NCBI GenBank assembly: GCA_946415665.1
Contig: CAMKTI010000001.1
Location: 1 to 43,943, forward strand
DNA length: 43,943 nucleotides
Direction of reading: 5' to 3'
Source of the DNA: an uncultured Clostridia bacterium
GTDB lineage: Bacteria > Bacillota > Clostridia > Lachnospirales > CAMVHY01
Shown in pieces: positions 27,981 to 43,883 of the stretch (the first letter of the stretch is position 1; each line of letters starts with the position of its first letter). Under the pieces are notes generated by a model that saw only the letters and a list, made by a program, of their open reading frames with translations, was not told the DNA's origin and searched no databases. A program made the position numbers and the translations under genes.

Positions 27981-29169
27981 ATGGCAGACAAGAATATCAT
28001 CGATGCAATGTAGAATGATTTGCCCATCGATGTTTCCACAGAAGTAAACTTTATCCGGTCCATCGCAAACAAATTGCGTGGTCTTTACCGCAGCGCCAAG
28101 TATAAGGATGTCATCATTCCGATGACCATCATTCGCCGCTTTGAGTGTGCGTTGGCACTTACTAAGACAGCGGTCGTAGCAAAGTTCAAAGATAATCCGA
28201 ATTTTCCGGTAAAAGCCATGCAATGCATTTCTGGGTTCCAGTTCTATAACACCAGCGAGTTCGACCTCGCAAAGCTGGTGAACGATGCGGACCGCATTGC
28301 TTATAACTTCAAGAATTACCTGCAGGGCTTTTCTGTCAATGTATTGAAAATCCTGATGTCCAAGGAGCATGACCTGAACTTCGGTGAAAAAATCGACAAG
28401 ATGGACAAGAATAACCGTCTGCTCTCCGTGGTCAAAGCATTCTCTGAGCTGGACCTAAATCCTTGTACTATCGACATACATCTTTGAAAAGCTGATCCAG
28501 AAGTTCTCTGAAAACGCCGAGGCTAGTGACCATTACACCAGTCGTGATATTGTTAAGCCCATGGCAACATCCTGTTGGCTGATGGTTGCAATGACATCTT
28601 GGATGACGTGAAGGTTATCACCATATTGGATCAGGACTGTAGCACGGGCGGCATGCTTTCCAGCGGCTATAACTTCATCAAATGTTATAATTCCTCTGCG
28701 AATGTTAGGCTGTTCGGTCAGGAGATCAATCCGGAGTCTTACGCTATGTGCCTTGCCGAAATGCTCATCAAAGGTCAGAATGCAAAACATCTGCTATCAG
28801 GACACCATGAGAGCAGACTGATTTAAGGGCACAAAAATGCGCTTTGTGCTGGAGAATCCGCCTTTTGGACAGCCTTGGGATGCTAATGATGCAGCCGAAG
28901 GCGTAGAAAAAGCCGTCAGGGATGAACATGCAAAAGGTAAAGATGGCAGATAGGCAACTGGGTTGCTGGGTTATGGCGATATGCAAAAGTTGTTTTTGCA
29001 ATTTGTAGTTGATAAGACGAATGATTCTTTTGGTATGGCAGCTATTATCGAAAATGGTAGTTCGTTTTTTAATGGTGGCACTGCTTCCGGTGAAAGCCAA
29101 ATTAGACACTGGTTACCTGAGAGTGATCGTGTTGAAGCTATTATTGCGCTTCCCACAGAGCTTTTCTAT
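27981..29169 (+). pseudogene. hsdM: HsdM-type N6-adenine DNA methyltransferase, N-terminal ~395 codons (outer gene, interrupted at 29169)
   Basis: Reads MADKNIIDAM*NDL..FIRSIANKLRGLYRSAKYKDVIIPMTIIRRFECAL (HsdM_N-like), ..YIFEKLIQKFSE..DHYTSRDIVK.., ILDQDCSTGGMLS (motif I, degenerate), FGQEINPESYAMCLAEMLIKGQ, FVLENPPFGQPW (motif IV) and ..SGESQIRHWLPESDRVEAIIALPTELFY. In-frame stops are TAG 28011, TGA 28819 and TAG 28951, with at least three frameshifts. Family similarity stops at 29169. Confidence 0.75.
29146..29169 (+). repeat. left copy of an imperfect direct repeat at the nested-element junction
   Basis: GCGCTTCCCACAGAGCTTTTCTAT (encodes ALPTELFY) pairs with 42982-43004 GCGGCTTACCTATACTCTTCGAC (encodes GLPILFD). 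Confidence 0.5.
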
Positions 29170-29406
29170 ATTATCAGTAATTTATATACTGTCGAAAATT
29201 TGCATGGAATTCGTTATGAATTAGCAGCATAATTTTTTAGACAGGCTGATTATCGGTCATATTAAAATAGAAGCACTGACAAAGAGGGGCGAAACCCCAT
29301 TTATTTTTACATTGAAACATCAACATAATTCAATGATTATATTGAAACCTGTTGGAACTCGCACTATAATAATGGCAATGGCAATTTTATACAGGAGATT
29401 GATTAT

Positions 29407-32040
29407 ATGCCTAAAGCAAAATCAGAATACGAGGTTGAGGAGCTGTACATTAGCAGGCTTGACGACATGGGCTGCGAATATGTAAACCTGAAGAACTATA
29501 ACGATGTATGCTACAACTTCAGAAAACAGTTCTGTAATCTGAATGCCAAGGAACTGATAGCAGCAAAAGGCGTGGGGAACTCTCGGATGCAGAGTTTGAC
29601 CGTGTGTTGATACGCCTTGGAAACCATACCATTTACGAATCCGCAAAGATACTGCGTGAGCAGTGGGTATAGAAGATTCTCATTCCGTGGCCTGTTCAGG
29701 TTTATCCAGCTGTTCGTGATTTCCAATTTGATGATTACCAAGTGCTGTGCCAACATCAACGAGAACGACCCGTCCGGGCATAAGCAGGACATCCTGAAAT
29801 CCTTGACATTCTTCTGGACGGATGAGAACAACGTTCGTGTGAGCAAGCTAATGGACTTCACAAATACATTCCTGACGAAGTTCCATCTGACAGAGATGCT
29901 GAGCAAGTATTTCGTCATCAATGATACAGAGCATGTCCTGCTGGTCATGAGACCTTATCAGGTCTATGCCGTGAAACATGCATTTGACCGCATCATCATG
30001 GCGAATATGAACGGTTATGTCTTTCATACCACAGGTTCAGGAAAGACACTGACCAGTTACAAACTGGCATCCCTGCTTCGTGACGACCGAAGGATTGACA
30101 AAGTATTCTTCCTTATCGACCGCAGCAACCTTGATGACCAGACCGTTGACGAATACAACAGCTTCGAAGCAAGATTCGTTGACCAGACCGACAGTACATA
30201 CAATCTGGTGAAAGACCTCCAGGACTTGTCAAAGACACTGATTATTATGACAATTCAGAAGATGGTAACGGCGCTCCGTTCTGAGGAGTACGACGCCAGT
30301 ATAACTACGTTCAGGCAGCAGAAATGCGTATTTATTATTGATGAGTGTCACCGCTCGCAGTTTGGAAAGATTCATTCTCAGATTAGCAAGCACTGCCAGA
30401 ACTCAAATTACATTGGGTTCACGTGAACGCCTATCTTTGCCGAGAACAAAGGTATGCAGTGACAGACAACGGCAGATATCTTCTATTCAGGGAAGCTTGA
30501 CCCGTGCATTCATAAGTACATGATTAAGGAAGCCATTGCTGACGGTAATGTGCTTCGGTTCTCTGTCGAATACATGAGAAGTATTTCTGTCACGAGCATC
30601 AAGGACTCTAAGATTGACCCGAAAGCGCTGGACAATGCGGAATACTGCAAGCGTCACAAGATAGACCTTGACGAACTGTATCATTCCGATGAGCGTATTG
30701 CTGCCATTTTGGGAGATATCCTTGAACACCTGAACCAGCATACAAGACTGGAAAACAACAATGTTTATACAGCCATTTTTGCCATCAATAAGATTGAGAC
30801 GCTGGTGAAGTATTACAACTATATGAAGGTGCATAACCCGAAGGGATATAAGATTGCAGCTATCTTCACTTATCAGGCCAATCAGGACATGGAAGAAAGC
30901 CCAGATAAGCACGCTGGCGAACATCTGGGAGCCTGCATGTACGACCTCAGTAAGTTTGATGCCTACCGCAAGGATATTTCCAAGCGTATGAAGCAGAAAG
31001 ACCTGCCTCAGGTTGACCTGCTTCTGGTTGTGAATATGTTCCTGACAGGTTTTGACAGCAAGCCGGCGAACACGCTGTTCCTTGATAAGAATCTTGTCTG
31101 GCACTTTCTGGTTCAGGCATACAGCAGTACAAACCGTGTGGACAAGGTGACGAAGCAGTTTGGTCAGATAGTCACTTACCGTAATATCAAGAAGACGCTG
31201 GACGATGCTCTGAAGCCCTATTCGGGCGACGGAGACCCGAATGCGTATCTGCTTCAGTCCTATGACTTCTATGTCACAGAGTATTACAAGTAGGTGGGCG
31301 AACTGCGGTCTATCGTGGCGACACCTGACGATGCAGGAAACCTTAAGTCTGAGAACAATATCAGAGCCTTTGTCATTGCATTCAGAACACTGGCGGGCAT
31401 CCTGAGCGCGCTGAAGACCTTCTCGAAGTTCGATTGGGCTGACTTTGCACCGGCACTGGATGAAAACGAATACGCCGATTTCAAGTCGTGGTATCTGTAT
31501 TACTATGACAAGCATAGAGGTGGCGGCAAAGAATCCGTTCTGGTCGATGTGGACTTCAACATCGAACTGGTCAGAACTGATAAAATCAATGTGGTCTGCG
31601 TCCTGAATCTGCTGAAGGACATCAACCGCAAGGACAAGAACGAGATGAAGAAGTCCGTAGACCTCATCCTCCGTGAAATCGAGCGTTCCGACAACGAAAA
31701 GATGCGTTATAAGCGGGATATCATGAAGGCATTCGTGACGGAGCGGTTCTTTGAACTGGACCCTGATGCCGATATCATCGAGATTTACAACGAATATGAG
31801 CGTGAAGTAATGCAGGCCGATATCGAGTCTTTCTCTTGTGAAAATAAACTAGATGCGGGTTTTGTTTTCAGAATGGTTCATGAATACTTCATTGACACGA
31901 AATCCGTTACAAAAGAATTCCTGAGAGTGGAACTTCAGTATCAAGGCGCGAAAGGTTTGTTGCGGATAACTGAATACATCAAGCGACTGAATGCTTTCTC
32001 AGAGGAAAGCTACAACAAGTTCATCGCTGAAGGCGAATAA
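29407..32040 (+). pseudogene. hsdR: type I restriction enzyme R subunit, with nuclease core apparently deleted plus in-frame stops
   Basis: The N-terminus is MPKAKSEYEVEELYISRLDDMGCEYV.. then (-1 shift near 29570) ..GELSDAEFDRVLIRLGNHTIYESAKILREQ... It then jumps directly to ..YRRFSFRGLFRFIQLFVISN..FFWTDENN..RPYQVYAV..GYVFHTTGSGKTLTSYK..FIIDECHRSQFG..GFT*TPIFAENK..HKYMIKEAIADGNVLRFSVEY... In-frame TGA at 30424-30426 and 30460-30462 and TAG at 31291-31293, all in the frame shared by ORFs 29617, 30520 and 31294. Confidence 0.85.
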
Positions 32041-42781: not shown

Positions 42782-42980
42782 ACTGGTATCTGCTACTTGA
42801 AATATGTTGGATTTCGAGCTATAATTTAGAAGAAATCAGGATTACTGATACCTTAATTATATAGTCGGATTGCCGAAAAATCAAGAGTATGAAGCTGTCT
42901 AAGGTTGTCCAGGTCGGATTTCTGTATAAAACAGCCCTAAAACCCCGTATTTATCAGGGAAAGTGAGTATTTAGACAATG

Positions 42981-43883
42981 GGCGGCTTACCTATACTCTT
43001 CGACACTGAAATCGCAACATACATATGGATTCGGTCAAAGAATAAGTGACATGAAAGAAAAGGTAAAATCTAATTTATTGATGCGTCAAACATCTGCCAT
43101 AAACTGAGAAAAGCTTTCGGTAAGAAGAAAAATGAAATTTCTCCAGAAGATCGAATTACCATAACGAAACTGTATGCCGATTTTGAAGAGAGCGATCTGA
43201 GCTGAATTTTGCGTAATGAAGCTTTCATGTACAGAGAATATGCAATCATTCAACCTCTTTAAAGAAGCTATACAGTAACGGAAGAGCGTATTCAGTATAT
43301 GCTTCAAAAAGTCAATGAATTGCAGGATGCGGGGAATTGTCTGGTAAGGAGCAGAAAAAACTCGAGGACTTCCTCAACAGCAAACCGTTTTATGATTCGA
43401 TTCTCACAGTTTTATTTGATTGAGGCTGTTTCATCTAAACGTTACGCGTTAGAAAAGAGCTTTTCGCCTATTCTAACATCTGCTTTATCTGTTATAACCA
43501 CAGACAAAAAACTTATTGCCAAAATAGCGTATGGCATGTCTGTTATGGATAAAGATGCCGAAATACAGAGGAATAAAAAAGGAAATATCATTTATGACAA
43601 AGACTCGAAAGATACTGAATTTGTCGGATTTGAAGAGGATATTGCAGAATACATGCGACGAGAGGTTCTTCCGTATGTCCCTGATGCCAAGGCCTTTTTT
43701 GAAGAAAACTTAGGTGCAAAAAAGCCAGTTATAAAAACCGAAGCTAAGATTTCTTTCACTCGAACTTTCTACAAATATCAGGTACTTACAGCAAGTGAAA
43801 AATTGGAGAATAGGTTTGTCGAACTCGAAGAAGAGGTGACAAGTATCGTTCAGCGTTATTTAGCTAGCGGAGGTAAAGTATGA
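42981..43883 (+). pseudogene. hsdM: HsdM-type methyltransferase, C-terminal ~300 codons (continuation of the outer gene at 27981-29169)
   Basis: A single frame reads GGLPILFDTEIATYIWIRSKNK*HERKGKI*FIDASNICHKLRKAFGKKKNEISPEDRITITKLYADFEESDLS*ILRNEAFMYREYAIIQPL*RS..DKDAEIQRNKKGNIIYDKDSKDTEFV..REVLPYVPDA..FTRTFYKY... In-frame TGA 43047, TAA 43071, TGA 43203 and TAA 43260, with no frameshift. From memory it is colinear with the C-terminal region of long HsdM proteins (..LFYNTGI.TYIW....K....KGKVQLIDAS..). Confidence 0.7.

Follow-up and report, generated by a model that had tools for sequence, protein, structure and literature searches.

The window, the whole stretch of 43,943 nucleotides that was analysed, contains a type I methyltransferase gene (hsdM) interrupted by a Tn554/GInt-like element of ~13.83 kb, placed at 29170–43001 by comparison with an empty site (each boundary ±~3 nt). 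The 5′ part of this outer hsdM (27981–29169, forward strand) corresponds to residues 1–402 of a 703-aa HsdM and ends ..EAIIALPTELFY, the 3′ part (43002–43883, forward strand) corresponds to residues ~403–703, and both are pseudogenes. HsdM_N and N6_Mtase domains are present and colinear with those of full-length HsdM, and the joined halves match 703-aa HsdM proteins (intact P0002) at 79% identity over 99% of their length, so that the preliminary description was right to see here one HsdM of a single subfamily split head-to-tail. A tblastn comparison places residues 1–402 of P0002 at 27981–29169 and residues 396–695 at 42987–43850. The overlap of ~7 residues previously reported between the halves (GGLPILF) is in fact element DNA, kept in other copies of the element regardless of target, and the host-derived overlap is zero. 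The C-terminal fragment had also been taken to run in a single frame to 43883; it contains four stops and a frameshift, and with three frame changes and ~10 stops in the N-terminal part neither half is open.

An uninterrupted hsdM homologue, the empty site whose search had been recommended, was found in the same gene neighbourhood. This locus (L001) aligns with the window in two blocks, 25370–29168 with L001 7383–11205 and 42997–43890 with L001 11202–12126, which abut across the insert, establishing that the insertion was precise. The hsdM halves meet between ..ALPTELFY and NTEIATYIWI.., and since every empty-site base is found just once in the two flanks, target duplication is absent relative to the uninterrupted syntenic locus. 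The 5′ side of hsdM adjoins an AAA_13 ATPase pseudogene (25616–27904, forward strand), as it does in the intact loci L001–L006; this gene, part of the surrounding decayed mobile island, was identified by blastn synteny and by tblastn with the L001 AAA_13 protein, which recovered four frame-shifted pieces of 79–92% identity.

Gene content and decay of the inserted element

The insert has both expected gene sets: the recombinase genes, which are read inward from its right end, and those of a type I R-M system. The latter comprise, on the forward strand, an hsdR pseudogene (29407–32037; 84–90% identical to L077 HsdR, with two frameshifts, three stops and a deletion of residues ~89–165), an hsdM pseudogene (32059–33662; three stops and one frameshift) whose motif LPAKMFHGAKLP is unlike the target type, and a frameshifted hsdS pseudogene (33669–34901). 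All three genes, each of them broken in the window copy by stops or frameshifts, are intact in the related loci L077, L009 and L011. They are followed by a 67-codon ORF with weak similarity to RepA/RepB regulators (34914–35117, forward strand) and a PIF1/RecD-like SF1B helicase pseudogene (35157–36699, reverse strand). Transfer functions are not encoded in the element.

The remainder is a four-gene recombination module on the reverse strand, with products of 456, 761–781, 637 and 157–163 aa in intact copies and pseudogenes of all four in the window. Nearest the right end, Rec1 (41427–42781; three stops, one frameshift) is a TnpA-like tyrosine recombinase gene, 88% identical to intact P0121. 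Then come Rec2 (39071–41404; seven stops), a large TnpB-like tyrosine recombinase gene (TnpB match with E = 4e-4 against all plasmids), and Rec3 (37187–39087; four stops and a frameshift), a third recombinase-like gene whose box II reads RQFR; this 637-aa TnpB-like paralogue is conserved in all copies. The fourth gene encodes a small DUF6262/TnpC-like protein (36711–37193; one stop) that shares 39% identity with a Tn554-related TnpC across 61 aa (E = 2e-7). Rec1 is colinear with a Tn554-related TnpA over ~400 aa (23% identity, E = 3e-11), and its catalytic residues R..HxxR..Y are invariant across 24 homologues; together with Pfam Phage_integrase matches this confirms the earlier assignment to the tyrosine recombinase elements.

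Decay to pseudogenes has reached the element, the split hsdM and the mobile island around them alike; the event is an old one, in a low-GC Bacillota genome, and the window copy is therefore a relic. Within the element the 67-codon ORF alone is intact, and substitutions in the window lineage show an AT bias.

Element ends, crossover cores and target choice

The non-coding ends of the element are AT-richer than the whole, as had been described (GC 0.31 and 0.38, versus 0.44 for the element), the left (far) end beyond the cargo being a short stretch of 237 nt at GC 0.31. At the left junction the target-derived attL core TTCTAT (29164–29169, forward strand), which supplies the F-Y codons and reads TTCTAC in the empty site, is followed by the left terminal inverted repeat IRL (29170–29197, forward strand). 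Its sequence, AT-TATCAGTAA-N8-CTGTCGAAA, is the same, or almost so, at six left junctions and inverted-repeat symmetric with the right repeat IRR (42970–42995, forward strand; TTTAGACAA-N8-TTACCTATA); the IRL of L102 also fits the IRR pattern on the opposite strand. A direct copy of the right-end motif (42825–42850, forward strand; TTTAGAAGA-N8-TTACTGATA) has a score reached in 231 of 5000 shuffles; all intact copies have this motif too, in a subterminal position ~145 bp inward from the end. The 26-nt bipartite terminal inverted repeats are significant in the intact L091 and L093 (score reached in 10 and 66 of 5000 shuffles, respectively); the window's own pair is too decayed for significance, and both its direct and its inverted repeat are recognisable through intact relatives only.

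The 23-nt direct repeat noted earlier at the junctions is by itself at chance level: 35% of shuffles, and 34% of window pairs taken at random, score as well. Across the element family attL and attR share a 3–6-nt core only, and a direct repeat of the 10–17-nt type, though drawable in the window, is likewise at chance level. The suggestion that the element carries a look-alike of its target holds in that the look-alike is element-borne; it consists, however, of IRR, which encodes its GGLPI, and a short crossover core, and is no restorative gene copy. The attR core CTCTTC (42996–43001, forward strand) differs from the target core TTCTAT and is therefore probably a carry-over from an earlier insertion site, although the mismatches in the window could also be mutations after insertion. 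Foreign attR cores match cores found at other hsdM types. The crossover position and core carry-over are read from three complete attL/attR pairs only, of which two differ in core (TTC versus TAT in the window, CAT versus TAC in L093) and one, L091, has the same core on both sides.

Intact relatives, with Rec1 69–94% identical, include one in the isolate genome of Butyrivibrio sp. WCD3002, and the element ends are conserved in L007, L009, L011, L013, L077, L078, L083 and L090–L093. Reuse of the same site by other copies, raised in the preliminary description as a point to check, is borne out: close relatives follow the LPxxLF[YFHI] codons of nine or more distinct hsdM genes and are always oriented alike, with six left and nine right junctions located directly after this motif.

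Relation to known mobile elements

The element belongs to a known Tn554/GInt kind, with precedents in GInts, in Tn554 and in the serine-integrase-triplet ICEs that target hsdM. GInts are bounded by imperfect 10–17-nt repeats, make 6–7-nt staggered cuts and carry R-M cargo (PMC5385486, 2017); their circle excision and integration require all four genes, and GinD has likewise been reported as TnpC-like (Bardaji et al.). The likeness, which is judged by layout and TnpC-like similarity, extends to a module of four genes placed at one end (those of two clear tyrosine recombinases, a degenerate third and a small TnpC-like protein), variable cargo that is often type I R-M, a short AT-rich far end, the absence of transfer genes, and site- and orientation-specific integration, with GInt flanks forming short imperfect hybrid repeats of element and target. 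In contrast, GInts occur in Proteobacteria and target an ABC-transporter 5′ end or the ssb 3′ end, whereas the present element, found in gut/rumen Bacillota, enters an internal hsdM motif and destroys the gene, and has clear 26-nt bipartite terminal inverted repeats as well as a subterminal repeat.

Insertion of Tn554 and SE elements carries 6 bp along and creates no duplication (PMC10214605). The Tn554 family (Staphylococcus/Enterococcus/Bacillus) has homologues of Rec1, Rec2 and the DUF6262 protein in its TnpA, TnpB and TnpC, encoded in the same order, and the two groups have in common the absent target duplication and the fixed orientation; in the present element, too, the junction core may travel from the previous site. 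Protein identity is nevertheless only 21–39%, the TnpB-like Rec3 is additional to the exactly three transposition genes of Tn554, the target is hsdM LPxxLF[YFHI] in all clade copies and not att554 in radC, and the cargo is R-M instead of antibiotic resistance. The SE (gamma-mobile-trio) elements have a comparable recombination module of four genes, the fourth being TnpC-like, the same 6-bp footprint logic and a non-mobilisable character, but their gene order differs (the degenerate protein is second in SEs) and their hosts are gammaproteobacterial. Against the element proteins, the NCBIfam models for GmtY and the VPA1267 family scored 34.9 and 19.1 bits, below their cut-offs of 340 and 90 bits.

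Two further precedents concern the target. ICEs of the Tn1549 family with serine-integrase triplets also combine a multi-recombinase module at one end with site-specific disruption of hsdM (Ambroset et al. 2016, PMC4701971; PMC7563491), but they are large and conjugative, their recombinases are serine and not tyrosine enzymes, and a replacement R-M system as main cargo has not been reported for them. In Helicobacter, R-M complexes land inside methyltransferase or R-M genes and decay follows (Furuta et al. 2010, PMC2853133), in that case with long target duplications and without a dedicated recombinase module (PMC2853133).

Mechanism, alternatives and implications

Very probably, a single insertion brought a site-specific Tn554/GInt-type element, in fixed orientation, to the point right after the LPxxLFY codons of a type I hsdM. 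This hsdM would itself have been part of a larger mobile island, in its defence region, and the incoming element would have had Rec1, Rec2, Rec3 and the TnpC-like DUF6262 protein gene at one end, with the PIF1-like helicase and type I hsdR-hsdM-hsdS as cargo. Its recombinases would join the element ends into a predicted circle with an IRR-core-IRL junction, and this predicted site would recombine with the TTY-TAY..ACN-GGN-AT segment of hsdM, producing no target duplication and leaving a few nucleotides of the previous-site core at the Rec1-proximal junction. Type I restriction requires HsdM. Since insertion would remove the C-terminal third of this methyltransferase subunit, resident modification and restriction would, from what is known of type I biology, be lost together, silencing the whole resident system safely and sparing the cell, and the element's own R-M cargo may then take over. 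A conflict of one R-M system with another, as first proposed for this locus, is a plausible reading.

A metagenome-derived contig with a sharp GC shift at ~22.5 kb and junctions within a conserved motif could point to an assembly chimera, or to homologous recombination between conserved hsdM motifs in an exchange of R-M cassettes. This is very unlikely, as the sequence shared by the junctions is shorter than 10 nt, the element side of both is non-coding inverted-repeat DNA and not hsdM, and the architecture recurs in independent assemblies as well as in the Butyrivibrio isolate. Tyrosine-recombinase-driven hsdS shuffling is common in type I loci (PMC7672463), and the window has two hsdM genes and several recombinase genes, so the hsdM pieces might alternatively be two independent paralogue remnants, or the type I locus might have been rearranged locally or inverted in the manner of a shufflon. 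The chance of this is vanishingly small: the pieces make up residues 1–402 and ~403–695 of a single protein, host sequence being neither shared nor missing between them, and abut within 4 nt of DNA on the uninterrupted homologue; the same insert, ends included, is found in unrelated hsdM genes elsewhere, and the recombinases are TnpA/TnpB/TnpC-like, unlike invertases. Colinear halves, the L001 alignment and the shared insert ends at other hsdM genes refute it.

A far more serious competitor accepts the same structure and denies the conflict: hsdM would be a mere safe harbour, being conserved and widespread, frequently borne on mobile DNA and disrupted without harm, and the R-M genes, a commonplace payload for addiction or defence, would have nothing to do with the choice of target. 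This has a substantial chance of being correct, if somewhat short of probable. Where Rec1 identity falls to 30–56%, relatives are found at targets other than hsdM (ligA, topoisomerase, a tRNA 3′ end, an rnfD/E fragment and a DUF1156 methylase), GInts generally carry R-M cargo yet target an ABC-transporter gene or ssb (PMC5385486), and the use of hsdM by streptococcal serine-integrase-triplet ICEs has been discussed as dispensable-gene targeting (PMC4701971). The very hsdRMS cassette of the cargo is also found outside such elements, hence the link between cargo and target may be a loose one only. On the other hand, all examined members of the clade that targets hsdM carry R-M cargo, either type I or an Eco57I-like methylase with a helicase-nuclease, and in the window copy the type I cargo hsdM, reading LPAKMFHGAKLP, is without the target-type segment. 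Moreover, distant relatives of at least three further lineages adjoin hsdM tails cut at motif I, motif IV and FxTPR, an apparent enrichment that convenience alone would hardly explain.

With regard to the insertion of a Tn554/GInt-kind element after the LPxxLFY codons, the window instance is a fossil only, valuable as a pointer to its family. If the family is active, it would offer a simple route for one R-M system to displace another, the element delivering a new specificity after silencing the resident system, and this would help to explain why type I specificities and defence islands turn over so rapidly in gut/rumen Firmicutes. An active family would also extend the little-studied Tn554/GInt/SE multi-recombinase class to new hosts and to a novel, motif-level target logic, and would provide natural recombinases for a sequence present in very many bacteria. 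More tentatively, and with rather less than an even chance, the Tn554/GInt-like four-gene elements of Bacillota may constitute a radiation in which each lineage homes to a different conserved hsdM catalytic-motif segment, puts the resident type I system out of action while the cell survives, and brings in restriction or defence cargo of its own. R-M replacement would then be systematic, spreading by riding hsdM-bearing mobile elements. The hsdM segments concerned in such a radiation are FxTPR, motif I (DPxCGSGG), motif IV (NPPF) and LPxxLFY.

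The interrupted hsdM and its empty site

HsdM-like sequence is present in translations of both 27850-29260 and 42900-43943 of the window, the upstream piece closing with ..RVEAIIALPTELFY at position 29169 and the downstream piece starting with MGGLPILFDTEIATYIWI.. at position 42978. When joined, the two yield a reconstruction matching 703-aa HsdM proteins at 79% identity with 99% length coverage, confirming the proposal of the preliminary description that they are parts of one colinear HsdM. Its further reading, that the 3' part runs in one frame to 43883, did not hold: this piece contains four stops and one frameshift, the upstream piece three frame changes and about ten stops, and neither is open. 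In pairwise alignment with the reconstruction the intact protein reads ..VEAIIALPTELFY-NTEIATYIWI.. at the junction, and the GGLPILF taken for a ~7-residue overlap of the pieces, while indeed present, is an insertion relative to intact HsdM.

The preliminary description had also suggested looking for the uninterrupted methyltransferase, and an empty-site homologue was found at locus L001, which encodes P0002, the closest intact HsdM, on the same type of island. This recurrent mobile island carries a replication module with DNA polymerase A, DUF2800 and Enc34-type ssDNA-binding components; next come an AAA_13 ATPase, hsdM-hsdS-hsdR and McrBC. By blastn, window 25370-29168 corresponds to L001 7383-11205 (85.5%), and window 42997-43890 to L001 11202-12126 (75%). 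Compared base by base, the empty site GAGCTC TTCTAC AAC ACTGAG has its counterparts in GAGCTT TTCTAT / ATTATCAG.. at the left junction and ..CCTATA CTCTTC / GAC ACTGAA at the right (the slash marking the junction), and all host bases are accounted for once in the window, with neither target duplication nor deletion.

From ~23.9 kb on, the window is a decayed copy of the P0002-type mobile island, with the AAA_13 gene broken into four frame-shifted pieces, and the inserted copy is a fossil of its element family. Host genes in 1-22 kb, among them aro genes, alaS and genes for LysM and Cna_B proteins, are intact. Substitutions of the window lineage number 159 in 6.3 kb (GC>AT 87, AT>GC 62), an AT leaning compatible with decay in a 30%-GC host; as a means of dating or explaining the decay this spectrum was dropped, the mild bias being all that it showed. 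Pseudogenisation extends throughout the higher-GC island (23900-43943), affecting homologues of a 296-aa and a 208-aa ORF, HTH_17, AAA_13, the outer hsdM and the inserted element, as opposed to the intact genes of 1-22 kb. An IS5-like transposase gene (22500-23230), itself decayed by stops and frameshifts, lies at the sharp GC change, a step from 0.30 in intact host genes to 0.44 in the island.

Insertion at one conserved hsdM site

Homologues of Rec1, the TnpA-like recombinase of the element, form 41 clusters in a large protein collection, all metagenomic. Contigs of 88%, 81% and 69% Rec1 relatives hold intact elements of common architecture, comprising Rec1 (456 aa), the large TnpB-like Rec2 (761-781 aa), its paralogue Rec3 (637 aa) and a TnpC-like DUF6262 protein (157-163 aa), then in some cases a PIF1 helicase, and lastly hsdS-hsdM-hsdR. 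Directly outside the Rec1 end, all these relatives have the 3' part of an hsdM, behind which come hsdS and hsdR. When genomes were scanned at one per species, a 94% relative of the same arrangement was added from Butyrivibrio sp. WCD3002 (L013), on contig NZ_AUJO01000004.1 around 11.6-35 kb. Left junctions and two complete elements were obtained by HsdR-centred and Rec3-centred retrievals. Loci L013 and L077 end ~350 bp and ~1 kb, respectively, before their far junctions.

Host residues preceding the element at the six left junctions are ALPTELFY (window), ALPNDIFY (L077), VLPRELFI (L078), GLPANLFH (L090), QLPSNLFF (L091) and AMPTQLFY (L093), followed directly in every case by (A/G)TTATCAGTAATTTATATACTGTCGAAAAT. 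All right junctions share the form TTTAGACAA-N8-TTAC(Y)NATA-CTY-NNN, beyond which the host tail resumes as (D)TEIATYIWI (window), STGIAACVLVI (L007), ATGTNVSVVFL (L009), GTNISTCIMVM (L011), STGISTYLWIL (L013), TTGIPVCLWIM (L083), RTSIATCIMVM (L091), RTGIPTIIMVL (L092) or ATQIPVSLWFL (L093). Insertion is precise and orientation-specific and recurs across many hsdM genes at a single conserved coding site: at least nine different genes of several size classes are interrupted at an identical codon, always in one orientation and with conserved element ends, so that reuse of the ALPxxLFY-coding site, which the preliminary description had asked to be checked, is borne out by other copies. Most copies carry type I R-M cargo, and those at L091 and L093 an Eco57I-like methylase with a ResIII/GIY-YIG-like helicase. 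In live copies, the tyrosine-recombinase genes retain their catalytic residues; a Rec3 scan of IMG/VR viral contigs returned no relative.

The element ends form a bipartite inverted repeat, TATCAGTAA-N8-CTGTCGAAA on the left (IRL) and TTTAGACAA-N8-TTACTGATA on the right (IRR). It is significant in L091 (19/26 positions; score reached by 10 of 5000 shuffles) and L093 (10/10 positions; 66 of 5000), and at chance level in the window's own copy tested alone. The ~23-nt direct repeat initially proposed to flank the insert is likewise at chance level in the window alone, and GGLPIL, interpreted at the time as a look-alike of the target carried by the element, is simply IRR translated in the hsdM frame. 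The IRR motif recurs ~145 bp inward of the right end, at 42825-42850 in the window. From the right end also comes an ATG that reads on in frame into the hsdM tail (MGGLPIL..; window 42978-43004, L013 ~9804); translation of a C-terminal HsdM remnant, and of hsdS and hsdR downstream of it, could therefore persist in intact copies. This ATG is absent from some copies.

At the crossover itself, the codon beside IRR-CTY and the last host codon at the left junction are TTC and TAT in the window, CAT and TAC in L093, and TTC in both positions in L091. Because the foreign cores equal those found at other hsdM types (TTC-G in L011; CAT-G in L009 and L090), we infer from these three complete pairs that the element takes a few core nucleotides along from the site it occupied before. 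Tn554 and SEs are known to show such carry-over (PMC10214605), and published work on GInts describes attachment-site variants (PMC5385486).

Gene content and family assignment

A Pfam run on X-masked frames, in which stops were masked, identified hsdR (SWI2_SNF2, T1R_D3-like, EcoR124_C), hsdM (HsdM_N, N6_Mtase) and hsdS on the plus strand, and a PIF1-like helicase and two Phage_integrase-positive genes on the minus strand. Tblastn with intact homologues placed hsdR at 29407-32037, hsdM at 32059-33662, hsdS at 33669-34901 and orf67 at 34914-35117 (all plus), and PIF1 helicase at 36699-35157, the DUF6262 gene at 37193-36711, Rec3 at 39087-37187, Rec2 at 41404-39071 and Rec1 at 42781-41427 (all minus). 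Every gene except orf67 contains stops or frameshifts; thus the type I R-M set said to be delivered by the insert is there, but as three pseudogenes. An alternative genetic code was ruled out by the mixture of TGA, TAG and TAA together with the frameshifts. The cargo hsdM reads LPAKMFHGAKLP at the position equivalent to LPxxLFY and is therefore not itself a target type.

In the cargo hsdR, part of the N-terminal nuclease region, residues ~89-165, is deleted in addition (window 29577-29670). The 67-codon orf67, sole intact ORF of the element, weakly resembles replication regulators of the RepA/RepB type, and its position next to hsdS is conserved in all type I-cargo copies. HsdR-centred look-ups with P0171 and P0170 recovered the same R-M cassette elsewhere and no further junction pairs. 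The hsdR-hsdM-hsdS-orf67 cassette (HsdR 90-94% identical) has a different trio-recombinase module as its neighbour in L101, lies in a recombinase-less remnant retaining IRL alone in L102/L103 (~4300-4510), and is outside any such element in L079-L082; it therefore moves between contexts.

Compared with Tn554-related genes from a Bacillus cereus plasmid, Rec1 is colinear with TnpA (23% identity, E 3e-11) and the DUF6262 protein matches TnpC (39% over 61 aa, E 2e-7), while Rec2 matches TnpB at E 4e-4 in a search against all plasmids; Rec3, whose box II is RQFR, gives a weak alignment to the catalytic region of TnpB. The gamma-mobile-trio models GmtY and VPA1267 (NCBIfam) gave sub-threshold matches and nothing above. 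GInts, likened here by description, agree in the four-gene layout, AT-rich far end and R-M cargo, and hybrid flanking repeats belong to the published description, the 23-nt repeat of the window being at chance level. A related four-gene module (449, 855, 625 and 147 aa) occurs on Enterococcus faecium plasmid NZ_CP065771.1 (L096, 112050-118272), where hsdS fragments adjoin it; E. faecium megaplasmid modules are annotated merely as an integrase and three hypothetical proteins.

GInts, SEs and Tn554 are known multi-tyrosine-recombinase elements, for which full-text literature searches found no hsdM target. Streptococcal ICEs with serine-integrase triplets do insert in hsdM (PMC4701971; PMC7563491), and R-M units inserted in R-M genes occur in Helicobacter (PMC2853133). 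Measured against these precedents, the family belongs to a known kind; its host range and its motif-level target are new, and it consistently carries R-M cargo.

Possible mode of insertion and the wider family

The element would circularise to give the junction IRR-core-IRL, ..TTACCCATA-core-ATTATCAGTAA.., which would recombine with the hsdM segment, core nucleotides of an earlier site travelling along. Type I restriction requires an M2S core, so that truncation of HsdM after LPxxLFY should abolish both resident methylation and restriction, without self-restriction. Hitting the hsdM locus would then do no harm, and the cargo system would find the field clear. The element has no transfer genes, and the target hsdM commonly resides on other mobile elements, as in the window, which would give it a ride. 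Target choice may reflect R-M conflict, or hsdM may simply be a safe harbour.

Among 64 genome loci, the right-end motif was found solely in close relatives, and distant relatives therefore have different ends and targets. Of the 47 genome loci with 28-40% Rec1 relatives that could be scored, five adjoin N6_Mtase fragments, the hsdM tail starting at motif I (D/PCCGSGG) in L026 (~9690), at motif IV (N/PPF) in L052 (~1238), and at FxTPR in L019 (~9720) and L025 (~5600). The hsdM type of L052, on a contig too short to reach the cargo, is 97% identical to that interrupted at LFY in L007. In L019, L025 and L026, hsdS comes after the truncated tail and the elements have trio recombinases, with defence-like cargo in L025 and L026; no N-terminal hsdM half was found within the 10-kb flank at their far ends, so that each case rests on a single junction.

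In three Bacilli, Cohnella lubricantis (L014), Cytobacillus gottheilii (L015) and Ornithinibacillus gellani (L072), the 3' part of ligA, encoding NAD-dependent DNA ligase, lies directly upstream of a 36-37% Rec1 relative, its tail beginning at the identical residue (G.xGE[GDN]I..N/Q.RTIRS.PL) at the Rec1-proximal end. As ligA is essential, its interruption may be tolerated because the gene is present twice or because its 5' part has been restored. A topoisomerase adjoins another Rec1 relative. Other neighbours are a tRNA 3' end in L085 (~700-800; Rec1 identity 51%), an rnfD/E gene fragment in L098 (7267-7494; 56%) and, downstream of a SNF2/NOV_C gene, a DUF1156 methylase gene in L087 (8086-9819; 40%).
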